Below are positions 3,601 to 33,600 of a stretch of 61,339 bases of DNA, piece after piece. The position numbers and the translations under genes were made by a program. The stretch comes from Carcharhinus longimanus (lineage: Eukaryota): assembly GCA_030264375.1 (NCBI GenBank), contig JASCQW010000081.1, forward strand, positions 36,129,292 through 36,190,630, given 5' to 3'. The notes under the pieces were generated by a model that ran no database searches, was not told the origin of the DNA, and saw only the letters and a program-made list of their open reading frames with translations. How positions within the stretch are numbered: the stretch's first letter is position 1; every line of letters starts with the position of its first letter.

Positions 3601-6600
3601 GCGGATACGTGATTGGAAGCTTCTCTTAGGACCAAATGTGACACCAAGTTGTGAGCGTTTTGATTTGGCCTCAGTTGCTAGGGAGAGGGATTTAGACTGT
3701 TGCTAAGGAATGAAGTTTGTGGTAGGGAGTGAGAACAATGGCTTCAGTTTTTCTAATATTTAACAGGAGGAAATTTCTGCTCACCCAGTACTGGATTTTT
3801 AAACAGGCATTCTGCAAATTTGACAGTGGATGTGAGGTAAAGCAGGGTGTTGTTGAGGTACATGTCAAAGCTTACACTGTTTTTGAATGTTGTTGAGGGG
3901 CAGCATGTAGATGAGAAGTGGGATGTGACTGGAGTTGGACCCTTGGCAACACCAGGGATATCAGTGAAGGAGTGGGAAAAGAGCTGTTGCAGTTGGTACT
4001 TGTTTATGATTGGATAATTAAAATTGGAATAAGATGCCACCAAAGTTTATTTCCTTATTTGTATGGATTAGTTGTACAAAAATTGCATTGCAGAACATTA
4101 TTCTGCATGGTATCCCTTTGCAGAGTGGCATACAGATTGATTCCCAGGTCTGATTTTATCATCCATGTGTTCCAGTTTTGGACTGCGATTTGGTGCTCTA
4201 CATCACTTTGCTATCCTTTCACCCATTTAAATCAATCTTTTTTTTATGTTTTCTAAATATTGAATTTAATATAACTAAAAATATTGAGTAGATTTCAATT
4301 CATGTTTGACTGCATAACTGTACATTGGATAGCCTATCTGCACTTGGGCAACAGGTTTAAGTTCTGTAAGATGTCTGATTACCTTCTCCAATGTTGTTAT
4401 GCTGAGATAGATGATGGATTCTTTCAAGACAACAGGGGAAGTTATGCCGTGTAATGCAATGTTCCATCGGAACTACTGGTTTACTGTAACTGAATATATT
4501 AAATTCTTCCTTGATTGCATGGGTATCCCAGGGTCTTGCTGGTGATGTGAGTCAGTGAATACCTTTCCCAAAGTATTGTCTGTATATTCACAAAAAAGTG
4601 AGCTTTATTTTATAGTAGTAGTTAAGCAACTCTGGAATTACTTAAATGAATTGGTAGGTGCTCTGTGTCTTGTACTAATAACTGGCATGTGCTGCTGTGA
4701 TTGAATATTTATTCCATTTGTAAGAAATGACAGTCTTGTTTTTTTTTACTGCTGCTTTGGGGATTGAATTACACCACAATGTTAATTTATTCTGGGACAG
4801 CCATAAATACATGGCTTTTCTTTTTTTATTGTGTATGAGTTTAAGGCAACCAAAATAAAGCAAGATGACATACAAGATACAATAGCTGCCTCTGGTTAAA
4901 TTNNNNNNNNNNNNNNNNNNNNNNNNNNNNNNNNNNNNNNNNNNNNNNNNNNNNNNNNNNNNNNNNNNNNNNNNNNNNNNNNNNNNNNNNNNNNNNNNNN
5001 NNNNNNNNNNNNNNNNNNNNNNNNNNGCTTGCTCCCCCACCACCTTATTTCAAATTTAAATTTAAAAAAGATGCATTCTGTTACACGATGCAGATTTGTA
5101 AGTCAAGTTCTACGATGCAAAGTTATCATTTGTAATTTGTAAATGTCTCACATATAGAAAATGTTATTAGCATTTACAAATGTTTGCCTTTTTAAATATT
5201 TTTTGTTTATTGTAGGCATGCACCGGAATTGAAAATATTGATGAAGCTATTACGTTGCTCGAACAGAATAATTGGGATTTAGTGGTAAGTACCTGATGAC
5301 AATTGTGAAACTAATAATTTTGAACCATATAGTAATTTCGGGAAGTCTTTCGCTAAATTGTGGCATTCTTGGAAAAAAAGTGAAAAATGTGTAACACAAT
5401 TAATTTGCTGTACCAGTAAGATTAGATTGTTGCTGAAGCATGACATATAGCGGTATGTGATGGCATAGCATAAGTCATTTTTAATTAATCTGTATCCATC
5501 TTATTTCTCATCTACATGATGGCACTCGGTGGCATCATCTGACACAATTCCAACTGCACGTGTACAGTACTTCACAAGCTGTCTCAATCTCTCCGCTATT
5601 TATGATTTATGCTGCTCACTCAACATCCAGTATTGGATGTATAGAGATTTCCTCCAATTAATTATTGGAAGATCAAAGCCATTGCTTTCAGTCATTGCTG
5701 CAAACTTCATTACGTAGCATAAACTCTAAGCAGCTGCCTGACTACTGCTTGAGGTTGAACCAGGCTGTTTGCCACCTCAATTTCTGTGTAATCCTGAGTT
5801 GATCTTTAACCCTGTATGCTTTCCATCACCAGTAATGCCCAATGCCACTCTATCCTTGCCACACCCCATGTGTGGATAAAAATGTCAACCAGGCCCTTGT
5901 TGCTTCCAGACTTGACTCTTGTCGTGCTTTCCTGAATGACCTTCCACCCTTCACAAATTTAAGCTATTGCAAAGTGCTGGATACAAGTAGCAGAACTGAG
6001 AAATTTCCACAGTTTGGTGCAATCTTGACATTTGGTTAATGAATTCTTCCTTTTTATGTGTGTTTTCCAACCTCCGCTGCTGACGGTTACCACCTGCAAT
6101 GTAGCCAAAGCTGGGAGGAGAAAGTCTCAGCGCAGAAAATCTCTATCAGTAACGGTGCTGGGAGAGGATCTTGGGGAGCCGCCATTGCTTTCTTTACCGG
6201 TTCTTGTTTTTGCTGGTTACTGGTGTCACAGTAATTTGCGAAAGATTTTATTTTTAGATTGTACATTTATTCATGGGATGCAGGCATTGCTGGCAAGGCC
6301 AGCAAATGTTGCCTTTAGCAAATTGTCCTTGAAAAGGTAGAGAGTTTAAAAAAAAAAAGGAGTCACTTTGGAGAATAGTTTAACAAGCATTGCTACAGTC
6401 CTTTGCTTTGCATGTACATAGTGCAACTTGTGGGCCGAAGGGCCTGTTTGTGCTGTAGTTTTTCTATGTTCTATAATCTGACAATGTCATGTTCAGATGT
6501 CAGTATAGACTTCATCCTGTATCCTATGCAGTAACTCCATTGACTGTGTAATGCTGAGGCCACTTTGTTGATTTGATACAAATGCATTGATCTGCAGTCT

Positions 6601-9600
6601 TGATGGTTTAAAAAAAGGTAAACAAAGGTAATATTTCTACCCACTTGATGTCTAATAATTCTACCTGTCTGAAGTCACCTAGAATCATTTGCATTTCACT
6701 GCAGCTCATCATAAGTGAAATAGTTGTGTGTTTCCTTGTCACAAATTCAAAACTTTTTGACTTCAGCCACTACTTTTCAATCCTTTTAGTCTTCGGCCAT
6801 TCATCCCTTTATATACTAATTCGCATAGCATCCCTTTTACCCATCACCATTGTTCTCGCTGACCTACGTTGGCGGCTGATCTGGTAATGTCTCATCTGAA
6901 ATTCTCGTCTTTGAGTTTGCACCCTATTTCTGACTTCTTTACCATTGCTACCTTTCAATACCTGTGCCCCTCAGTTCTGATTTATTGTGCACCCCAATGA
7001 CCATTTCTGTTTCGTTTATCAGATGTACTTTCATTTGCCTTGGTTCTAAGTTTTAGAATTTCATTCCGCGCTCCTTTTAAAATGCTCATTAAGAAGACCT
7101 ACATCTTTGACTAAACTTTTTGTTGCTTGTCCTGATATATTCTCATGTAGCTTAGATTCACATTTTTGTATGGTAACACTCCTATGAAGTTCCTTGGGGT
7201 TCTTTATTATGTTAAAGGTACTATAAGTACAGATTGATGCTAGTGTTTAGTATTCTCCTGGTGGTCTATTGTATTTCTGCTGGTACAGATGTTCTTATGT
7301 TTTGACTTTTACAACTTGGCCATGTGGTGGAAATGGATGTTAATATTCTGATTTAATCCACCTTAATTACCACTGACAAACATTCCTTCCATACACTTGT
7401 GTGCTCTCCTTTCTTCTTCATAGCCCAGTGACACAATAGTTGTAAAGGCTCCCACATACTCCCACCTAAGCTTGTCCAGTTCAACACACATCTGAAATTT
7501 AAGTCTGAACCCATATTGTTGAGGTAGACATTACATAACTCTGACAAAATGTTTTTGAAAAATAAATTTTGCATTCAGTACTCTTTCAGAATTGATTAAA
7601 GAAACTCTGAAATCTAAGTCCAGTATTGAACACCTCTCAGATAGTGATAAAATGCAGGCCTTTCTTGGAATAGAGCTTATTTTACCATACTTAAGAATAC
7701 ATTATTCATTGTGAATATAATGTTCAAGCCATGCTTGTAATCTATCTGGGATTGTTAATATAGCTTTGGGTCATGGAATAATATATTTGAACAGAGGGCT
7801 GTGTAACCAAGATCTTTATACTTTGAGTTCAATGGCTGAAAGTGAGGAAATAAATTAATGGATAACACAAAGGAATTTAAAAGCTTTTTGCCTAAATAAA
7901 AATAGTTGAAAGATGGAGCTGATCAGAGACACAAAAGATAGGAGGCAGAGAGCATGGGTGAGGTACTAAATAAGTACTTGACATCTGTCTTGGAGAACAG
8001 GTTGCTATTAATGCAGCAGTAACATAATATTAGATAGAGAGAATAAAAGCATATTAAACAAAAGGCTGTTTAAACATTGCCTGCCTTTTTAAACTAGGCT
8101 TGGTTGGGATGCATCCTTAGTTATTCAGGGAAGTAAGGGTGGAAATTCCAGAAGGTTTGGGTGCAATCTTCCTTGGATAATGTGGGTGATACCAGAGGAC
8201 AAGTAGATTGCAAATATTAAGCCTCAAATAAAAGGAAGAATGATAAACTTGCCAATTACGGGTCAGCCTACCAAATGTTGATGGGGGAAGATTTTCTACT
8301 GGCAACAATTCAGGGTGAAATTAAGTATTGCTTGGAAAGTCAGAATTTATGGAAAGGCAAGCAATTAACTAACCTAAGTTTTTAAAGTTGTAATAGAAAT
8401 GGTTGATGCTGTGATTCTGTGACTTTGAGAAGATATTTGACAGAGTTACCACACTATAAACCTGTAAGCAAAATTAGAGCTTGTGGGGTTAAAGAAACAT
8501 TGATATAAGAACATAAGAAATAGGAGCAGGGGTAGGCCATCTAGCCCTTCAAGCCTGCCCCGCCATTCAATAAGATCATGGNNNNNNNNNNNNNNNNNNN
8601 NNNNNNNNNNNNNNNNNNNNNNNNNNNNNNNNNNNNNNNNNNNNNNNNNNNNNNNNNNNNNNNNNNNNNNNNNNNNNNNNNGATGCATTCCATCCGGTCC
8701 TGGGGACTTGTCCACAATCAGTCCCTCCAGTCTTTCGAGCACTGCCTCTCTAGTAACATTGCCCTCCATTACAAGCATGGCTTGAACATTATATTCACAA
8801 TGAATAATGTATTCTTAAGGATAAGTATGGTAAAATAAGCTCTATTCCAAGAAAGGGAGTGAGTAAAATTGGATTAAGGTCAGAAGGTAGAGAGCAGTGG
8901 CGGATGATTTTTTTCAGACTGGAGCAAAGTACACACTGTTCCCCAGGTGTTGGAATTGCGGCTTTTTAAATTTATATTAATGACCTGGGTATATGGCATA
9001 ATTTGGAAGTTTGCATAATCAATGAGAATAATAGCAGGAGAGGGCATAATTTGATGAAATAGATGCATTTCAGATTAAATTCAACGAATTAAATTCCTCT
9101 TGATAAGAATAAAAGGCAATATAAACTAAATGCTACAATTTTAAAGTGAAGTGCAGGGTTCGAGACCCTGGGTTTGTGTACACAAAGATGGCATGACAAG
9201 TTAGGAAAGACTTTAAGAAAACGCATACACAATTCTGACGTTAATCAAGGTGAAGAGTATAAAAAGCGACAAAATTGTGTTACATTTTACAAAAGGTTGG
9301 CTGGACCTCATTTGGGCATTGTACTTTAGAAAGGAGTAGTTTTTATTCCTTCATGGGATATGCCTTTGTTCCCAAGGCCAACAATTTTTGTCCATAATGA
9401 AGTGCCCTTGATAGTTGTGGTAAGCTGCCTTGAACTGCTGCAGTCCATGTGCTGTAAGTGATAAAGGCAAAGTACTGCAGACGCTGGAATCTGAAACAAA
9501 AACAGAAAATGAAAGGATAATATAGGTACAAGTCAGGATAATGTGTGGCATGGAGGGGAATGGCGGTGGTCCCATACTGCTTCAGGTGGTAACAAAACTG

Positions 9601-18600: not shown

Positions 18601-21600
18601 CGCCATTGGTAATGGATGCACATTCTGTAGTTTTATTCAGTCAAATCCAATGGTCATGATATTGTTTTGACATTTTAACCTTTTATTTGCAGGCTGCTAT
18701 TAATGGAATAATTCCACAAGAGAATGGCATTTTACAGAGGTAAGCTACCTTTCCTTTGTTCATTAAGGGCGCTGGTACAAATTTTGAAGATATTAAAGTG
18801 CAACGTTTATGAAAAAAACCTTTGACTTAGAAAATGCTACTTTCACCAAGAATCTTTGAGTCTTGTGTTTTCCAAACAGATTATTTCTATTTAAATATTC
18901 TCTTCAACATTTCTCTACATTGTTCTGCTATAAATGCTGGCTTGATATATATTTATATTTGTGAATAAAACCCAGAAATGCAGGAAACAGTCAGCAGGCT
19001 AGGCAACTCATGGAGAAAGAAATGGAGTTCACATTTCAGGTTGAAGACCTTTCACAGAACTGGGAAAAGTTTAAAAACGTAATGGGTTTTAAGCAAGTGA
19101 AAGGAAGCAGGGAAGGAGTGAATTTGTGATAGGGTATAAAACAGGAGAGATTAAATGACAAAAGCGGTGGTAGTCCAAGGCCAAAAGAAGTGCTAATGAA
19201 ATAAAAGATTTTGAGAGGAGGTGTGAATGGCAGAATGATGATTAGCTGCTGTCCAAAATCTGGCGCTAAATAAAAGTAAAACCAAAACTTCCAAAGAAAG
19301 AGGAAACAAAATGGGAATAGAGATTATGGTCTGAAATTATTGCACACAATTTGTATCAAATTGAAAGATGAGGTGCTGTTCCTTGAACTTGAAGTTCATT
19401 GGAGCACTGAAGGAGGTTAAAGGCAGAGAGTTAATCATCTGAACAAAGTGGATAATTAAAATGTCAAATGCCAGGCAGTTTGGGATCATGTGTGTGGAGT
19501 GAACAGAGATGTTCCACAAGATGGTCACCCGGTTTGCATATGATCGTCCTAATTTAGAGCAGACCACATTGCGAGCAGTGAATAAGTATATAAATTGCAG
19601 ATTCATCTGGAAGGAAAATTGGGGTCAGTGGAAGAGCAGGTGTTGCGTCTATTGTGATTGCATTGGAAAAGTACGTAAGGCGGGGACGATTGTTGTGAGG
19701 TGATTGAGGAATGAACCACTGTGTTAAGGAGGAAACTGAAATGCGGAAAGGAAAGGGTAAAGTGTGTTTGGTATAGCAACGTACTAATGTGTTGGAAATA
19801 GTGGGGGATGATCATTTGAATCCAGAGACAGATGGGATGGAAGGTGAGGAGGACAAGGGGAATGCTCTCATTGTTCATAGTTCAGGAAAATAGTGGAAGG
19901 AATGAGAGTTGAAATAGGATAGATGTGGTCAAAGACCCTGTCAACCAGGACAACGGGAGGGAGAGCAGGGGAGTCTCTTGGTTGATCTCTACTGAGATCA
20001 GTAACTTTTTTTAGAATACAAAAACCCAGGTGATTACTGAAAGAATGAAAGCACAGGGTTCACGGTTTGTATTCAGAATCTTACTACAGAATTTAAGAAA
20101 ATGACTATTCTTTCTTAGTGAGTTATATTTAAGGATAATTAAAGTATAATGAATGCAGGTACTTATAATTGAGACTAAACTCTTTCAATCAGATTACCTT
20201 CTACACTCATTAGATGTAACAGCCTGAATAAATTCCAGTCCCATACTTTCAAAAAATGAAAGATTAACTACTTGGTCTGAGTACAGTTTCAAAACAGTAA
20301 GATTTATTGAGACTTCTGCTTCTGACAACATTTTCTGTTAAAATCTCCTCAAACCATCCTAGGGAAGGAAATTGCCTGCTCACGCACACCATCTCTTTCT
20401 TGCTCTCCCCCTCGACTGCATGCTAGCGCCCATTTTAGAAATCTGTTTCACTATTCTTCCGTTAAGTGATCATAAAATGATAGGAATAAATAAACATTAA
20501 GTTCTATTTGTGCTATCGATTTAAATCTACCTTGTTAATTTTCGCGACTCTTACTTGCTGATGCACTGTGTTTGTATGTTTTGTCCCTTCCTCCCTCTCG
20601 CTGGTTAGCATTATTTGCATCACTATCTTGCCTTGTGGTATCGTAGAATCCCTACAGTGCAGAAGGAAGCCATTCAGCCCATTGAGTTTGCACTGACGGC
20701 AGCACCACCAAGGCCCTATTCACGTAAATTTATCCTGCTAAGTCGTTGACACTAGGGTCAATTGAGCGTGGCCAATCAACCCAACCCGCACTTCTTTGGA
20801 TGTGGGAGGAAGCCCATGCAGACGTGGGGAGAATGTGTAAACTCCACACAGATGTGACCCAATGCTGGAGTTGAACCTGGATCCCTGGTGCTCTGAGGCA
20901 GCAGTGCTAACCACTGTGCTATCGTGCTGCCTGAATTATATGATTCGCCAGTAACCTAGTAACACCTTGGTTCAGGTGAAGGCTATCCCAATGTTCCAAC
21001 TCTATTACAGGTGCCAGTGCTCCTTTGATGAACTAATTTCTTCTCCATCAAACTTTGAACAATACATTCAATTCTGTGAACTTGAGTTCAGGTGGTAATC
21101 CAGAGATTGTTACCTTTGTGGTTATGCCTTTTAATTTAGGCCTTAGCTGCTCATTCTCCCTACCTTCTGGATTCTCACACTGCCTGAATGATGTCCTTAG
21201 CAAGACCACCTGTTTTGCACTAGTTTAAATTTTAAAGAGCTGAGTTGGGCACTGCTGACTAGAAAAAACAGTTTGAACTTGCTACCTAATTAACTAACTG
21301 TAGCTGCCTCTGACTAAGACTGACAGAAACTTGAATTGAAATCAAAATTGTAAATTGTTACCAAATGCAAACTTGCTGGATTTTAGAAATTAACCCTTGA
21401 AAATTCCTTCACTTAGCAAATTTCCAAGCTTGTGTTCTTGACCTGTACTAAATCATGAGCTGCTACCTTTGTGCTTGCTTACTTAGTGAAAATTATAAAG
21501 CAGAGGAAATTAATCTTGATTCGTAACTTGAAATTTCTTGTGAAGATGTCTTAACCCCTGTGCTTAAATGTGCAAATAGTTATGCATTTATGGCAAAAGA

Positions 21601-24600
21601 ATTGATTGATTTCATGCTATTTTTATGACTTTTATTTATGAAGGGATCCTATGGTATCTTGTAATTTATAATTAATAATTTGAAAAGAAATCACCACAAG
21701 TTAGGGTTGGAAACCTGTAATCAGAGAATTGTCAGTACAAAATCTTGCTTTTTACCATTTTACAGTACGTTGATGCTCTGACACATTGCACTGGCTACCC
21801 AAAAGCAATTTAAGTGAAAAATATGTATTGGGATGCAAATATTTGTAATACATATTGTGGAGAGAACTTATTACAAAAGCTGCTATTTACAACAGAAATA
21901 AACCAGTGATAGTTCTATGGATTAGGATAAATTCTCATAGTTGTTATACTATAGAAATCTTAACCTGTTTTATTAACATAATTTATGTTTGAAATGTCTT
22001 TTACTTTGTTTGCAGTGAGTTTGTTAGTGGTGAAGCATCACAGGATCCAGTATATGGTCCCACCAGCCAACCTTCCTCCTCCTCCTCTTCCAATTCCCCA
22101 GCTTTCTGCCCCATAGTACCATCTAGGCCAATTGTAGAAAGACAACCAAGAATGCTAAATTTCAGAGTGGAGTACCGTGACAGGAATGTGGAAGTGGTAG
22201 TTGAAGACACCAACACAGTTGGTAAGATTTTGAACGCAGTTGATATGATTTTTGAAATAACATAGGTGTGGTTAAACTGACACAAAATGTTGCATGTATG
22301 TTCCTATTACCACTCTGATAATCCCAGCTCTTATACAGGTACCCCCAAATCCAGCTATCTGAAAACTGGAATTGTCCAAAATTCAGACATCTTTCTCTCA
22401 CCTCATGGAACAGGATAAATAGAGGAGAATAAATGAATAATTGTAAATTTTTTGAAATACAATATGTAGTTGGTGCTTGTGTGAATCACATGCTTGAAAT
22501 CATTGCAACCGTTGAGCAGTATTTTTTGTCTTCACTCTGAAGCTTGGATGCTAAATATGGGAATTAAATACAAGGAACCTGCCTCATTGAGAATATCTCA
22601 CAGATTAAGACACATGACCAGGAGGGATTGCTAAACTCAGAAACGAAGATGGAACAACCTCGGACCAGTTCAGAAACCTGAAAGTTAAAATCCTTATTTT
22701 AATTACCTGTCTGCTCTCCTCTGATCTGGTGAATAACCTGAAACCTGCCAAAGTCTCATTCCTGATGATGCTGGAAATTGGATATTAGATCTGCACTATT
22801 TTAAAAAGTTTGAATTTATCCCCAAATTACGTTTGTAAATGTACCAATATTTGAAGCTTTTCGTTGAGCATAACTTTTGGAACTATAGAATCCCTACAGT
22901 GTAGAAATAGGCCATCTGGCCCATAGAGTCTGCATCAGAAATTTTTAAGCATCTGTTCAGAATTGGGAAGATCTGCAGATGTTTTAATGCTGGGTTTGAA
23001 AAAAAGATAATTTATAAGTAAAAGTTAAATTCCTATAACATATGAATAATAAAAATTACGTATTCTTAATACCCCATATGTTTGTGAATTGAGTTCATAT
23101 TTTACCTTTTGTTCTTTATTAGTTAGGCATATGCACATGCACACATCTTACCTTTCCTCCTCCCATTTGCAAATATTTAAGCTTTTTTTCTGTAAAACAG
23201 AGGAGGCTAAGGAGTGACCTAATTGAGGGGCCTAGACAGTTAGGCAGGACATACTTGTTTCCCCTAGTGGAGAGGTCAGTTACTAGGGGGGCATGGATTT
23301 AAGGTGCATGGTAGAAGGATGGTCAAAGGGACATGAGGAAAAATGTTTTCACTCATGGGTGGTGGATATCTGAAATTCACTCCCTAAGTCGGTGGTTGAG
23401 GCTGAAGTGCTCAACTCCTTTTAGAAAGTACCTGGATCTACATTTGAAGTGCTGGAATCTGCAAGGCTATGGATCAGATGTTGGAAACTGGGATTAAAAT
23501 GAGTAGCAAGTTCTGTTTTTCTCCTCTTGTCAGCTGTTGCAGACATGAAGGGCTAAATGGCCTCTTTCTGCATTGTATCATTTCTATGGTTCAATAATTC
23601 TAACTGCTTATCAATTGGAGGACTAAATTATAACTTTTTGGCAAGGGATTTAATTAATTGCAAGAATCTGTTGCGAAATGTAGTTCTAGTCTACTTCTAT
23701 ATTTGTATAAAATCACAAGGTAATTATGGACAAGGAAGATCATTTGCTCAGCGTTGTTTTTCAAGACATTTTATCATGACCTAGCTAGAACTAGGAATAA
23801 TGTTCTGCAGGGAGAGTTTGAAGAGTTAGTGCCTAAATTAAAATACAGAATCTCAAAGGTAATAATCTTGAGCCACGTGTAAATTGACATAGGGTCAAGC
23901 AAATTGAGAATTAAATGAGTTATCCCTGGTGTCCTGGACAATATTTATCCCTCAATCATTATCACAAAACCAGGTTATTTTGTTACTGTCACATTAATGT
24001 TTGTGGGAGTTTGCAATGTGGAAAATTGGTTCCATATTTCCTGCAGGGACGATGTTTCACAAGTATCTCATGGGCTGTGAAGCATTTTGAGATGTCTGTT
24101 GGTGCAGGATTTTTTTTCAGGCTTCCTATCCTGTTTTCCATAAAAAATATATTAACAAAAATGTCTCCGTTCAAAATGGGGCACAAATTACTATTTCATT
24201 TCAATCCAATTATTCCACCCTTTCACTCCATTTCACTTGAGGAATCAAATTAGTTTTGATTTCCCTTCCACAATGCCAGAGTAAATGAATTGGTGTATCA
24301 TAAAACCAAGAGCTCTATCACTCATTGAATAATATTTTGTTACAGAATATATGCAACTGACACACTTTCCACTTCAAGCTCCCTCACCTAACTTAACTGA
24401 GTGAGCCTTTTGGCTAAGATCAAGCATAGTATTGACATGCTGTGCTTGGTTGAAGTCATTAGATTACATTTTAGCTTCGTTTGAAGCAATTTTTAATAGC
24501 GGCATCTCGGCCTTTTGGCTAAGATGCAAATGAGACCAAGCCTTGGAGGAGGAGCTGTGTCTACTCCAATCAGCTTGGATCATGTAGATCAAGCCCAAGA

Positions 24601-27600
24601 AGGAGGTGAGAGCTCTGTCTTGTCAGCTTGGATCAGAAATGTCTCAACTCGTTGAGACTCTGAATTGGATTTGATTGGATTGAATTGGAATAAAAAAAAT
24701 CTGTTCTTTTAAAAAAAAAACTGAGTTAGGCAGTTTTATAGATCAACCTGCATTTAAGCTCTGACTTTAAAGGCAGTTAAACACGTGGAGAGTGGATAGC
24801 TGAATATTTTGAAGTACTGTGAGAAGAGGGGCAGGAGATAATAAGAATTGGATGGACAGCCAAAATCTGTGGGAATGAAATTATGCCCAGAGGAAATCGC
24901 ACTAATAGGGTAGGACAAGGCCATGAACATTTGAGGATGAAGATTTAAAATTCAATCAGAATGAAAGTGATAGGTGAATGTGCAATAGCCTTTGGTAGTC
25001 GAGGTTTGAATGAGGTAGAAAAGATAATGTGAGGCCAGCAATTGTTTTTCTCCCAAAACTTCAGTCAGCCTTTTTTCTAATTTAAAATAACAAAGATATA
25101 GACATGGTCCGCCTTAATAGGTTATTTGACATAAATGGGTTGGGGAGGACAAGGTGACAAATATAAATTACATGCTTAGGCATTTTTTTTTTACTTAAGA
25201 GCATCAACTTCTGGAATGTGTTGTGGCATATGTACTGATTATCTGCTCTAAGTATTCAAAAGAGAGTTAGCCAGATTTCTCAGTGTGACATGCATAATTG
25301 TATATGGAAGATTAATGGATATTGTTATGACCTCCTCGTCATCAATCTCCTAGCCATTAGTTTCCAGGACGGCAACAAAGTATCAAGTTTTTGCTATTGA
25401 TACATGTTCTGTGACTGCTGTCTGAGAAACCTATGGCTTAAGTTTGAGAATTCTCTGAAATATCAATCTGCCAGTTGAAAAGATAGAGGATTTGAACTGC
25501 CAACATACATCTGTGTTTGCAACTCCCAGATGATGTGTCTGGACATGCTGAACTTAAGCTCCGCTTTCTTCCAAATCATTATTCCAATATTTAAAGAAGT
25601 GTTGATTAGACTTGCAGTGGAAATACCTACTTGAAATGATACAAAACGTTAATTAGGACACGGGTTTTTCTAAGGTGATTTTCCTAATGAAATTTTTGCA
25701 GCAAGTTACACATGTTACAAATGAATCCTTCCACTTTGAATTTAGATAGGTTTGTTTGTTTTCCACTTATTTTTAAAAAAACACAGTATATTATGAAACC
25801 AGACTAGACCCCAGCATCTTTGTATTTTGGCACTAATATGAGGTTAAGGTGTTTCACTCCAGGTGTGATCCTGCTGACACACTGGGAAACTTTCAAAATA
25901 AATTTTACTTAACGCAATCTAGTTATGATAAATGAATTAGCTTAATTTTTCACAATTGAACAACGCTTAGACATGACAAAACCCACTTCTTAACTGTTAA
26001 CTTATCACTTAGTTTCAAGAAAGCACTATTTCTCTGATAGACTTAAACCCATCTTTGAAATTAGTTGGCAAGCACAGACATATTTGTGACTTGGGTTACT
26101 AGGCTTGGAGCTTTCAGAAAGCCTTTGAGATTAAAGAGAGTGCTTTATTCTGGCAGCCAATGCAGCAACTGCTATATTTTAAAATGGCAATGAAATTTTG
26201 TTGTTTATTTTCCCTGCAAGTTTAGCTACTCCCACTAATCACATGATTCAAATATGTGAAAGACTTGCTATGCTGAGTCAAAAATCTCGGAAGAACTTGA
26301 ATAAACAAAAGGTCCATTAACTCTACAAAGTTACATATCCCTGGCTAAAATCAGTTATTATCCTGCATTCTCAACACTTGAGCTATGTGGCTTACCAGAC
26401 AACTCAACTCTTGTAACAAATCACTACTTCTTAAAGCAGCTCCACCTTGCACACAAAACACATCAAAATCGTGGCTCAGTGGTTGATACTGCTGCCTCCC
26501 TGCAACTTGGACCCAGATTTGATTCCTGGCTTGGGTCAATGTCTATGTGCTGTTTGCACATTCTCCCCATGTCCTCCGGGTGCTCCAGTTTCCTTCACAG
26601 TCTGAAAGACATGCTGGCCGGGTGCGCTGGCCGGGTGCATTGGCCACATTAAATTCTCCTTTGGGCAATGGAGTGTAACAACTAGGGGATTTTCACAGTA
26701 ACAGTGATGTGTTAATGTAAGCCTACTTGTGGCACTCATGAATAAAACTTAAACAGTATCATCACAAACGTATTCTTAAATTCTTATGGTATTTTATTTG
26801 TATTAAAGCTCAGACATTAAAAGCAAAAAAATTTGTGCTCCAATAAGAGAAAAATGTAAAAAGACATTACTACAATTTCAGCTATGCATTTGTCTCCCCC
26901 GCCTACGCAGTGTCAATCATCTCATTGAACCCAACTCTCCTGTTCCCTTCAACACCACCTCTATCAAGTGAAAGGAACTCATGGATTATACTATCATGGT
27001 GCAGTGGTTAGCATTGCTGTTTCACAGCGCCAGGGACCCGGGTTTGATTTCCAGCTTGGGTCACTGCCTGTGTGGAGTTTTCACGTTTTTCCCCTTGTCT
27101 GTATGAGTTTCTCCTGGGTGCTCCAGTTTCCTCCCACAGTCCAAAGATATGTGGGTTAGGCAGATTGGCCATGGTAAATTCTCCCTCGGTGTACCCAAAC
27201 AGGTGCCTGAATGTAGCGTCTAGGGGATTTTCACAGTAACTTTGTGTCACAAGCCCACTTGTGACACTAATAAATAAACTTCAAATAAAGAAACACTTAC
27301 TTGCCTTTGTTGCAAGTGGTATGCAGCAAGGGCTCATAAGAGGGACTGCAAGTGAGAAGCACTGAGCGTTCAGCAGGGCTGTAGCAAATTGGAGGCACGT
27401 GGTAGGCAGTTAATGGGCACACAACAATGTTATCAGTGAAGGGAGAAATGATGCCTGTGTCAGTGGAGTGAGCTGGTGCCATGTGGGCATGTGTAACTAT
27501 TTCTATTTGGCATCTGGAATTACACTAACTGAAAAACTTAACCAAAGTTAGGAATAGCATTTTTTCTGACTGGAATTATGGTGGATTATGTCTAAATACT

Positions 27601-30600: not shown

Positions 30601-33600
30601 TCACCAATCAACCTGACCTACGTATCTTTGGAGCGTGGGAGGAAACCAGAGCACCTGGAGGAAACTCAGAGACTGGAGAATGTGCAAACTCCATACAGAC
30701 AGTGACCTGTGGCTGGAACTGAACCTGGGTCCCTGGATTTGTGAGGCAGCCGTGCTAACCACTATATCACTGTGCCACCCTCCACTGTGGCCGCCATAAC
30801 CTGGAGCCGAACATTGAACAAGCTATGTTAGACCAGATACTGTGCAATGTGATGGGAATAATTAATGATCTCTATAGCAGTGACTGTAATATGGTTGAAT
30901 TTTACATTCAGAAGGGGTTGCTAGATTATCGGGGATAGGCAGAATACAGATTTGAGCTTATTATCGGATCAACCGTGGTCTTATTAAATGGCAGAGCAGG
31001 CTTGAGGGGCTGAATGGTCTAGTGCTCCTTGCTTGTATGTTTGTATATATGTAAATATGAGGCCATTCACTTTGCTTACAATAATTACAATCTGCAGATG
31101 TCCTTGCCCCCCCTTGTGTCTCCTTGACCATTTGTTGAAAATGCTAAGGATGAGCTAGTGAGTTTGGTGAATTCTGCAGTGGACTGTTCCTCTAATTATA
31201 GCTTGTTCCTCTCCCAGATCTGCTATTCACTAGTGAACCTATCAGCAACAAATATAGTTAACCTTTTAATAAGGTTTAATAAATGTCTTCTTTCGTTAAA
31301 AGTACATCAGCAATCTCTGTGGCTCTGTTCAGCAGCTGCTTCCATGTTTCTAAACAAAAAAATAAGAGTGAGGATCTGTCAAGTCAGGTTTCACTCTGGG
31401 ATCTCACTTGCCCAATAGTAACATTAGCTGGAAACTGATTTCTATGATTATTCAACAACTTCCTTGTCATTACATCATGTATCAAGATAATAGAAGGTTT
31501 GTTAGGCTGTTCATGACGTTTTAGACGAGCAATCAGTATATAATGCATTTATAGAATTGTCATCATGTACATTAAATAACTTTCATTTTAAACACGCACT
31601 TCATTGGAGAATGGATCATAGCTATGATTCAATGTATTGTGGGAGACTAACATTTATTAGAACTGTTACTTCCGATCCTTTTTCAGTCTTTATTTGGGAG
31701 TAAACAACAGACTGAGATGGCTCTAGTAAAAACAATACAAATAATTTATATCTTTATTCATTTTGATATGCATGTATTCTATTGACAGGATTCATACCAT
31801 TTAAAGTTTGTGTTTGTGTTATCGAGTCAGGAACCAAACTAACCAGACACTTTGGGTACTGTTTAGATTGTGTTTCACGGACTTAACCTCCTGGGTTGTA
31901 AGCATAACTGATAAGTTTTTTTGTCGCATTATTGTGATTGTTTTGATCTGTTTTAAATCCTTGAGATTTAACTTGACCTATTGTTTTTCTCCCCAACTGT
32001 AGACTATTTTGAGGTCTCTTCACTTGCCGAAGAATAATAGTCTTTATGTTCTCACACCTGACATTGTTCAACCAGGATCAGATGGACCAGCAACAAGTCA
32101 GTCTAGGTAAGCTGTCAAAGTCGTTTCATTTTTTGTGTGTTTATTGAGTGCCTGATAACTTTGCTTTGGCATTGATTTGTTTGGCTATGTTGATGCTATC
32201 CAGTCGACTGGTGGGAGTACAATAATTGATTGGGAACACTTTCATAATTTCCATGTGATCTGTCTGACTTAGTGTGAATAGTAGCAAATTTAATTCGGAT
32301 GAATCAACAAAGATTAGAATGCAAAGTAAAGCTTGGATTTGGGGGTTATATTTTGTGGAGTTCTCCCATTTGTCGCAATGCCAGTGTAAGAGCCACGGAA
32401 ACCCTGGAAAAGCTTCATTGTTACTGTTTATGCTATTTTTCCAGGGTGTCCGTAGGTGTTCCGACAGCTATGGTGGACGAGCAGGCGAAACATTGCAGAA
32501 ATTCAGCCTCATTGAATCTAGATGGGAGGGAGGTCTGCAGCTATGCTGTAAGATTATTTTGTCTGAAATGATTTTAAAATTAGCAGTGAGTGCATTAACA
32601 AACAATACATAATGTCAAAAATTTATTGTATCACTCGTAAATTTCCTAAATAATTTGACATAACCACTAAGAGGAAGAAAAATGAAAAAACTTGAGATAA
32701 AATGTGGCTTCATGGAGACTTTTGTCTTCATTATTGGAAATACACAACAGCTGAAAAGAGAGGTTAATGTTCAGGTAAAGTCTGACAAAATTCCACACTG
32801 AGTTTATTACTATATCTATACTCAGCTATTTTTAAATATATTGATTTGAATCAAGAGTTACTTAGATCCTTATGTCAGTGCACCAATGGCTCAAAGGCCT
32901 GCATCTTTGTATTTTATGATAAGAGTCCTTCCATAGAACTTCAAGTATACGCTGACAATTAAGCATAAACAGTACAAATAATAATTTGAGTGGGGTTGAT
33001 CAAAAAATAAGTAAATGTATAGCTTTTCTTTCAATGGTGGTGCTTTGGGTAAAATTATTAATTGCTGGGCAAAACTATGTTCTTATGGGGACTGAGGGAG
33101 GTTTACCTTGTTTTGATTCGTAATTTGGACACTGCACTTGAAGTCAGCCTAGCCCACTGCAACTAATAATTCTTTCAGTGCTGTTCATTCTCTCTCTTCA
33201 TGTAGCATCTTCAATTCACAGCACATAACTATGCATGAGTCAATGATGTGCGATATCATGATGGGGCAGTAGGTCCCAGCAATTGCTTCAGTTGATAAAG
33301 GGATTGAATCCCCAGTGTTAGCACTATTAAGCACAGCACTCTAACCTTCTGAGCTATCCAATCTGGGAGGATTTTTGGTTGTTTTAAATGAGGGGAAGGA
33401 ACTTTTAGAGTTGCCTACTGAAAAAGTGTTTATTCAATATTGTTTTTTGCTTTGTAAACACCTTAAAACTTGAACTCTTGCCATATGATCTTTTTAGTCA
33501 TTCATTGGGAGTTTGAATTCCTTTTTAGAAGTTGTTGGTCATTATGAAGATTGTAACAATTCAAATAGGTGCCTCTGCAGAATTTCAAATCCACAGGCTG

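Follow-up and report, generated by a model that had tools for sequence, protein, structure and literature searches.

A dispersed family of U2 snRNA-headed retroelements with U2-site copies in the shark Carcharhinus longimanus

Results

The window analysed here, the whole stretch of 61,339 nucleotides from C. longimanus, contains two FAF1 exons (22117 to 22221 and 32003 to 32106; E-values of 1.9e-12 and 6.6e-9 against solved FAF1 chains), and between them lies a composite insertion at 24395 to 24726, which the initial annotation had correctly placed in a FAF1 intron. These and all following features are on the forward strand. All coordinates given earlier for the insertion agree with the sequence, and its succession of U2 snRNA, inserted element and U2 snRNA is confirmed as a real observation. 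The short repeat that had been noticed on both flanks is an 8-bp target-site duplication, AACTGAGT, at 24395 to 24402 and 24719 to 24726; flanking repeats of at least 8 nt were found in 1.7% of the mismatched flank pairs used as a control. There is no sign that this intronic copy has a function of its own.

The two bases GA separate the left duplication copy from the U2-derived head at 24405 to 24433, which corresponds to U2 nt 12-40 with three differences according to the sequence, the Rfam U2 alignment and the family copies. The reported equivalence of 24405-24431 with U2 nt 12-38 (two differences) holds against both the Rfam U2 alignment and the U2 genes of the same genome; the head scores 21.9 bits with the Rfam U2 model, which is below gathering. 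The 268-nt insert delimited previously does end with A8 (24692-24699), but it does not begin at 24432: with the family head reaching U2 nt 40, the first base of the body is 24434 and both sides of the insert carry U2 nt 39-40. The body opens with an antisense arm (24437 to 24465), an imperfect inverted copy of U2 nt 11-39 that is predicted to fold over the head. It is followed at 24488 to 24494 by AA and a run of five T, kept in 25 aligned copies, which we take to be Sm-site-like without the closing G and which would presumably stop RNA polymerase III. A second, internal copy of U2 stem-loop I lies at 24502 to 24527 (U2 nt 7-27 = 24505-24525) and is closed by three extra pairs in the predicted fold. 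The same prediction yields hairpin A (24534 to 24581), whose base resembles the first bases of the 5' UTR of the partner LINE described below, hairpin B with the same basal stem (24587 to 24634) and a short 3' hairpin (24641 to 24658). GATTG-type short repeats, AATAAA (24689-24694) and the A8 tail constitute the normal 3' end of the family (24662 to 24699).

The window copy continues with U2 nt 39-47 at 24700 to 24708, the 3' side of the Keno/Utopia target site (PMC4640811, PMC6136364), which is rare in the family. The A10 tract noted behind this 9-mer is present, but not directly adjacent, because two T (24709-24710) intervene; together they occupy 24709 to 24720, with the last two A inside the duplication. 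Genome-wide, the A-tract tail pattern is followed by U2 nt 39-47 in five matches (control: none), and the other four run on into the U2 3' part, while about 0.02 chance 9-mers in this register are expected under assumed numbers. The U2 piece after the insert tail is not chance.

Genome pattern searches retrieved 766 exact matches to the tail and 802 to the junction of U2 head and body, with none in the controls, which disposes of the possibility that the insert is single-copy. Mark-recapture on two contigs (82 and 82 copies, 9 shared), scaled to the genome, gives an estimate of about 6,400-7,300 copies, or roughly 6,000-7,000. The insert belongs to a dispersed family of non-coding retroelements of about 300 nt with at least 800, and likely several thousand, copies. 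There are two main subfamilies, young and old, one junction is common to the copies, and the head ends at U2 nt 37 in old and at nt 40 in young copies. A U2 head is present in 43 of the 46 copies with a readable 5' flank and in 14 of 17 among those picked by the tail alone. Full-length copies begin at U2 nt 1; 17 of the 46 start at nt 1-5, and the eight that start at nt 1 have no upstream sequence in common. Runs of T4 and T5 in the body are conserved across aligned copies. An Rfam search of the body gave no tRNA, 5S or 7SL match and no known RNA family, its six matches being one sub-threshold U2 and otherwise chance, and the element has no Rfam ribozyme match. Long target duplications are uncommon (9 of 46 copies by script, two or three of them doubtful), and 57 dispersed 3' flanks contain no target motif. 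Some genomic loci carry tandem element copies, and one copy is directly preceded by 5S rRNA. The element is not a LINE 3' UTR: tail-selected copies are preceded by the element body or an assembly gap, and the LINE tails are different. In a comparison with sequencing runs, 21 rows shared words with the insert, with small shares in 14 and shares of 31-35% in 5 rows from two organisms, one of which may be the source; none of the rows listed is recorded as RNA.

In eight other element copies the sequence behind the tail is U2 from nt 39, the Keno site, as anticipated for further copies whose tail abuts the U2 3' part. These loci cover both subfamilies and two U2 sequence types, and the 3' ends of their U2 parts are scattered between positions 82 and 230 (seven of the eight measured); the scatter and the two types imply more than one insertion event. 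A search for an A tract plus U2 nt 39 onward gave 14 matches, five of which belong to the element and five to LINE tails; no Utopia-like element was found among the 14 (L038 unclassified). U2 target sequence at both ends, proposed as a feature of the element, is a rare exception and not a trait of the family, being present in none of the 29 best other copies and none of 30 tail-selected ones. The insertion outside U2 had been regarded as a mis-insertion; dispersal is the norm and U2-site copies are rare. U2 targeting by the element is leaky. Nested loci had pointed to U2 nt 30/31 as another strict target, but insertion there is rare and the idea was discarded (6 matches versus 4 in the control, only 2 of the 6 real), and insertion at the element's own head/body junction was represented by a single match. 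Truncated U2 pseudogenes also exist in the genome (L044, L066, L036).

Six matches were found for a U2 upstream spacer, a putative promoter judging by its location, with a U2 3' end on one side and U2 nt 1 on the other, and by its PSE-like look. All six were read: two run through U2 nt 1 into the element (L203, L248), two lead to LINE sequence (L223/L246, L046), one leads to an A tract at the U2 site (L036, a LINE-bearing locus) and one is truncated, so that none of the six leads to an intact U2 gene. An 8-bp repeat surrounds spacer and element in L248, and one LINE 5' end lies behind the same spacer as the element copies. Upstream DNA unlike the spacer is present at the best-scoring U2 and at the U5-U2 gene clusters; that of the best-scoring U2 was considered as the mark of a source locus, but none of its four matches has the element. 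The check for copies inside full-length U2 genes with promoters gave the two copies behind the spacer and no source locus with intact promoter and complete U2.

A near-full LINE flanked by two element copies (L208) encodes a ZCCHC3-type ORF1 (PF23057/PF23058), an APE-type endonuclease (PF03372; E 3.5e-4, under the Pfam cut-off), a reverse transcriptase (PF00078) and a zf-RVT domain (PF13966). The label Tx1-type comes from this domain layout and not from a named match. The 5' ends of the LINE are U2-headed in 15 of 30 cases (control: 0 of 498), LINE 5' ends also bear pieces of U1 or U3, and six LINE tails lie at or near U2 nt 39. Among 29 independently found LINE 3' ends, one is at the U2 site, two adjoin the element (P about 4e-5) and 26 do neither; the LINE is weakly site-biased for U2 and mostly dispersed. 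The U1 and U3 pieces, together with the 5S rRNA in front of one element copy, indicate that template switching, too, contributes small-RNA pieces. Element and LINE stack head to tail far above chance and their divergence ranges overlap. The search for an autonomous LINE sharing both ends was half successful, since such a LINE exists and has a short 5' motif in common with the element (the score is reached by 2-5 of 300 shuffles for three copies and by 22 of 300 for a fourth), but the 3' tails differ. Likewise, the postulated Keno/Utopia-type partner is recovered as a U2-biased, Tx1-type LINE with an APE domain, but Utopia and strict specificity drop out: Utopia has a restriction-like endonuclease and the U2-site LINE an APE-type one. 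Protein searches revealed relatives of the LINE (63-71%) from several sharks and rays with sequenced genomes, with no named Keno among the 10 of 150 listed proteins that were looked up.

Element and LINE both open with an antisense arm that is predicted to fold over the U2 head. The predicted folds, on which all pairing statistics rest, have stability z-scores of -5.5 and -5.9, and none of 200 shuffles is as stable. All nine transitions between the arm and U2 11-39 preserve the predicted pairing (P 0.005), as do all seven in the arm of the old subfamily (P 0.02). The subfamilies differ in 10 of the 197 paired columns and in 19 of the 108 unpaired ones (Fisher 8e-4), and copy-level decay amounts to 4.6% in paired versus 5.8% in unpaired columns; six of the ten differences in paired columns break the pair of the young subfamily. 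The pairing of the LINE's first 18 nt with U2 1-32 exceeds that of 293-299 out of 300 shuffled sequences.

Discussion

The family, its U2 head, the U2-site copies, the spacer-linked copies and a LINE of the same habits are all observed. The source copies of the family probably lay within U2 genes at nt 38/39; the U2 promoter probably drove their transcription, and the U2-biased Tx1-type LINE probably copied them into new sites. The LINE endonuclease would nick U2 DNA at nt 38/39, where the element would insert, and RNA polymerase II starting at U2 +1 would produce an RNA that runs from U2 1-40 through the body and the A tract into the remaining U2. The first bases of the body may then fold back on the U2 head and mask the sequences that pair with U6 and the branch point, so that the element RNA would not work as U2 snRNA. 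Ordinary copies, in their thousands, would arise when reverse transcription is primed within the internal A tract at loosely selected nicks; where priming takes place further downstream, the outcome would be a rare copy with a U2 3' piece like that in the window. Read-through from an upstream U2 unit may occasionally take along the spacer with the next promoter and could seed new source copies. A more ambitious and rather doubtful version, drawn from sequence and predicted folds, is that of a SINE-LINE pair that parasitises snRNA transcription, with insertion into U2 genes to gain the U2 promoter, an arm that disarms the U2 head and read-through that carries an external promoter along. If true, it would answer how snRNA-headed SINEs spread without an internal promoter and would represent a naturally occurring RNA switch by which a spliceosomal RNA is put out of action.

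The U2 head might instead have been gained once or twice by a jump of the reverse transcriptase onto U2 snRNA, with transcription from flanking promoters and the U2-site copies as a dead end. Such jumps onto small RNAs do occur here, as the U1, U3 and 5S junctions document, template switching is favoured for crocodilian SINEU (PMC4494074), and the missing intact source locus is in line with it. We nevertheless judge it unlikely, since no common upstream sequence precedes the 5' ends that stop at U2 nt 1, two element copies and one LINE copy are joined to the same upstream spacer, and in both subfamilies the end of the head coincides with the insertion site. It is still less likely that another LINE, L1-like or other, which accepts any A-tailed RNA moved the dispersed copies and that the Tx1 family shares only the hot spots. 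The lack of a common 3' tail and of a flank motif would fit; the use of the same U2 nucleotide and spacer, the head-to-tail stacking, the overlapping divergence and the fact that the Tx1 LINE is itself mostly dispersed all speak against it.

For the window copy, an alternative to movement as one unit is that U2-site preference brought the element into a U2 pseudogene that was already there, was truncated at its 3' end, consisted of U2 12-47 and an A tract and had a duplication of its own. Truncated U2 pseudogenes are at hand, and the scattered U2 ends and two U2 types of the eight other copies would agree with this course of events, but internal priming on read-through RNA would produce scattered 3' ends just as readily, and the single U2 head, the family junction and the one duplication around everything make entry into a pseudogene somewhat improbable. 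There is a rather better, though still minor, chance that the family is already catalogued in Repbase, Dfam or a repeat library as a shark SINEU or a non-autonomous Keno/Tx1, in which case the mechanistic details alone would be new: thousands of copies are easily caught by de novo repeat finding, and the LINE relatives extend through several sharks and rays. Against this, our literature search found no description of the family, and PMC4494074 states that no SINEU was present outside crocodilians as of 2015.

Our preferred reading, in which source copies within U2 genes are mobilised by the Tx1-type LINE, connects the targeting of U2 by Keno-type elements with the origin of snRNA-headed SINEs. 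Intermediate stages are still readable in the DNA, namely U2-site copies, spacer-linked copies and a partner LINE that behaves alike, and the promoter question on SINEU-like elements thereby becomes directly testable. The family would likely show how snRNA-headed elements get transcribed, by borrowing the U2 promoter and the enzymes of a partner LINE, and the predicted fold-back arm common to element and LINE offers a concrete candidate mechanism that would keep such RNAs from behaving as defective U2 snRNAs.

Comparison with known systems

The closest counterparts are SINEU-1, -2 and -3, which occur with Tx1-Mar LINEs in crocodilians and whose transcription was left open (Kojima 2015, PMC4494074). 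The literature search found SINEU described from crocodilians only, the range given in PMC4494074, and the shark genome provides a large second case, in an elasmobranch. The shark element has the features of the class, an snRNA-derived head on a non-coding, A-tailed, multi-copy unit of less than 500 nt that is not a sum of chimeras, and it also resembles SINEU in its oligo-T runs, tandem stacking, duplications in some copies, 3' tail distinct from that of the LINE and probable partner LINE of Tx1 type, with pieces of U2 or U1 at the LINE 5' ends (PMC4494074). In contrast, SINEU by description prefers Mariner-N4_AMi (PMC4494074), whereas insertion at U2 nt 38/39 persists in the shark element and its LINE, and some shark copies are linked to the U2 upstream spacer. 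The portion of PMC4494074 considered here mentions neither hairpin nor complementary or antisense sequence, unlike the predicted antisense arm of the shark element.

Keno is an autonomous, U2-specific LINE of the Tx1 clade (PMC4640811, PMC6136364, PMC4494074), and the shark LINE resembles it in site and layout, that is, in the 3' junction at U2 nt 39 (PMC4640811, PMC6136364) and in its APE-type endonuclease, RT and zf-RVT domains, but it is mostly dispersed, and the shark element codes for nothing. No non-autonomous Keno is described in the portions of these three papers considered here. Utopia uses the same U2 site, and its crocodilian representative has loosened specificity, but its restriction-like endonuclease differs from the APE-type of the shark LINE (PMC4640811), which is therefore not Utopia. 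The R2 SIDEs of Drosophila are comparable as non-autonomous elements in a multicopy RNA gene that is targeted by their LINE and whose transcription they use; they keep the 5' ribozyme and 3' end of the LINE and stay in rDNA (PMC3414825), whereas the shark element has no 3' end in common with its LINE, carries a host RNA 5' end as head, matches no Rfam ribozyme and is spread genome-wide. An origin by internal deletion of the LINE, as in R2 SIDEs, is discounted, since only the short 5' motif is common to both. The shark element is a SINEU/Keno-like variant and not a wholly new kind of element.

Structure and genomic context of the window copy

The layout proposed for 24395-24726 in the initial annotation proved correct, as the repeat, the split U2, the insert and the A tracts are all present. 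Sequence inspection shows an 8-bp direct repeat (24395-24402 and 24719-24726) that encloses U2 nt 12-38, the body, A8, U2 nt 39-47, TT and A10. The copy is located in sense orientation between two FAF1 exons (22117-22221 and 32003-32106, both + strand). An earlier FAF1 exon lies at 5216-5287, and a short exon reading AAINGIIPQENGILQ (18693-18739), called by script only and below the length usable for a database check, likely belongs to FAF1. The sole Rfam match of the window copy is a sub-threshold U2. The presumed empty site (24387-24402 plus 24719-24730) forms a short palindrome with 7-bp arms around the duplicated bases. The body also harbors ATGCAAAT (24524-24531), which we take to be the octamer motif of snRNA enhancers; its presence may be due to chance, and the scanned part of the element-linked U2 spacer lacks it.

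Copy number, subfamilies and insertion pattern

The genome search (2.68 Gb) yielded 3,079 candidates, of which the 40 scored comprise the window copy itself and copies 91-94% identical across almost the whole element. The multi-copy nature of the insert is documented by 766 exact matches of a 23-letter tail pattern and 802 of a 27-letter head/body junction pattern (control 0 for both). Scaling from the overlap of both lists on two contigs (82, 82, 9 common) gives roughly 6,400-7,300 copies, a figure inflated by assembly gaps. Clustering of 88 distinct copies, a set skewed toward best matches, separated 70 young copies (6.4% from their own majority), six with a variant tail and 12 old ones (9.2%), and the head extends to U2 nt 40 in the young and to nt 37 in the old copies. 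Duplications of at least 8 nt were scored in 9/46 copies (control 1.7%), two to three of them doubtful, and the 57 investigated 3' flanks of dispersed copies have no target motif. Fresh copies are often inserted immediately 5' of older ones with one duplication common to both. At locus L031 (1964-2082, - strand) an element copy has a 5S rRNA copy (86 bits) fused directly to the 5' side of its U2 head, likely the result of a template switch; an HE1-unrelated insert and a U2 3' part belong to the same element copy.

Copies in the U2 site

The initial annotation had assumed U2 sequence on both ends of the element. U2 3' sequence follows the element in the window copy and at eight other loci, but it is absent behind the 29 best other copies and behind the 30 copies selected by their tail. 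A targeted search for the tail joined to U2 nt 39-47 retrieved five matches (control 0), and all four besides the window run on into U2. An A tract followed by U2 nt 39 onward matched 14 times, representing five elements, five LINE tails, one bare A tract, one unclassified case and two mutated or truncated U2 sequences; the old-subfamily pattern contributed one further U2-site copy. The eight loci include both subfamilies and two U2 sequence types, and in the seven measured the U2 portion stops somewhere from nt 82 to nt 230. For scale, the U2 pattern without interruption matches 11 times, some of the matches being duplicated and most pseudogene-like. This junction equals that of Keno and Utopia in U2, as described in the accessible parts of PMC4640811 and PMC6136364.

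In four loci (L099, L100, L097, L119), LINE and element copies are nested in one another, forming arrays whose junctions lie at U2 nt 30/31 within element heads; such junctions are rare genome-wide. Dispersed retrocopies of one U2 type (L056, L057, L061, L062, L065), some with duplications, reach about 40 nt beyond the mature 3' end; apparently, 3'-extended U2 RNA is often retroposed as a passenger.

The probable partner LINE

The postulated autonomous U2-linked LINE is present, as its tails at the U2 site and a nearly complete copy (about 5.1 kb) in L208, flanked by two element copies, document. The L208 copy encodes ZCCHC3-type ORF1 domains, RT, zf-RVT and an APE-type endonuclease (the last below the Pfam cut-off), a layout that we take to be of the Tx1 type. 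The LINE found at the U2 site has 2,329 genome candidates, and its named relatives (63-71%) originate from skate, ray, horn shark and whale shark, in keeping with an elasmobranch host. It carries a U2 head on 15/30 5' ends (control 0/498); other 5' ends bear U1/U3 pieces, with U3 above gathering in two and U1 below it among nine scanned loci.

In one LINE subfamily (L230, L233, L237, L238, L241, L242), the start consists of U1 5' sequence continued by U3 5' sequence, and L103 has a comparable U1-like stretch behind a tandem array; a short U1/U3-headed family may exist. In another subfamily (L219, L220, L222) the U2 head stops at nt 47, the end of the window's 3' U2 piece, and U2 nt 47/48 may represent the second-strand cut.

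Predicted RNA folding

The window copy (z -5.5) and the copy in L015 (z -5.9) have predicted folds that none of 200 shuffles equaled in strength. The arm at the start of the body repeats U2 nt 11-39 in inverted and imperfect form, and its transitions all preserve pairing as G-U (9/9, P 0.005; old subfamily 7/7, P 0.02). In the predicted fold, subfamily differences are rarer in paired than in unpaired columns (10/197 vs 19/108; Fisher 8e-4), whereas copy-level decay is hardly lower there (4.6% vs 5.8%). On the other side, six of these ten differences break the pair, and only two common pairs changed between subfamilies, both one-sidedly. The first 18 nt of the LINE pair with U2 1-32 in the register of the element arm (1-7/300 shuffles equal). 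The LINE's first 26 nt are also similar to the base of both internal hairpins of the element (2-5/300 shuffles for three copies, 22 for the fourth). A second U2 stem-loop I is present inside the element. U2 pairs with U6 and the branch point through bases in its 5' region, and the hairpin is predicted to cover them in the U2 head.

The U2 upstream spacer

In one U2 type, a U2 3' end is separated from the next U2 nt 1 by about 210 nt of spacer. All six genome matches of this spacer were read, and none leads into an intact U2. It is followed by U2 nt 1-40 and a full element in L203 and L248, by LINE sequence in L246 and L046, and by an A tract at the U2 site adjoining LINE sequence in L036; the remaining match is cut short. 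The 8-bp repeat enclosing spacer and element in L248 and the start of L246 with the U2 3' end are as expected for retrocopies of read-through RNA. The spacer contains a box at about -50 to -70 that, compared by eye with the PSE consensus, is presumably PSE-like. The U5-U2 clusters and the best-scoring U2 have upstream DNA unlike this spacer, and no element was detected behind that of the best-scoring U2; the spacer is thus regarded as a putative promoter only by inference. The tandem U5 and U2 genes in L059, L060 and L064, about 260-380 bp apart, look like real snRNA gene clusters.

Proposed origin of the element

The 5' ends were surveyed at 60 loci, 13 of them with a gap at this end and one unresolved. 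The 46 usable copies, of which the window copy is one, have a U2 head in 43 cases and a start within U2 nt 1-5 in 17; of those selected by the tail only, 14/17 have the head. The eight copies starting at U2 nt 1 have no upstream sequence in common, which would place the 5' end of the element RNA at the U2 start. Acquisition of the U2 head by template switching appears unlikely. The LINE is mostly dispersed; among 29 of its 3' ends, collected independently, two directly adjoin the element (P about 4e-5) and one lies at the U2 site. No 3' tail is common to LINE and element. That a different LINE mobilised the element is quite improbable. A separate question from the origin of the family is whether the window copy was inserted into an old U2 pseudogene; we consider this scenario doubtful.

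The simplest account, which the sequences make reasonably probable, is that the element would have arisen at the Keno site within a U2 gene, its RNA would start at U2 +1, and a Tx1 LINE whose preference for U2 is leaky would have dispersed it, the window copy being a rare product that held on to 9 nt of U2 3' sequence.

Comparison with known systems

SINEU and U1/U2-headed Tx1-Mar are known from crocodilians only, and SINEU transcription was left open, according to the accessible part of PMC4494074; available sections of PMC5381603 and PMC5786205 repeat the crocodilian restriction of SINEU. The main text of PMC5499810 on chimaera and shark SINEs mentions no snRNA, SINEU, Tx1 or Keno. Our literature search, which missed most subscription journals, Repbase and Dfam, found no shark case of an snRNA-headed SINE. 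The R2 SIDE elements represent an analogous case (PMC3414825, in part). The observation is real, and the element, judged against the published description of SINEU, is a variant that works like SINEU and Keno combined.
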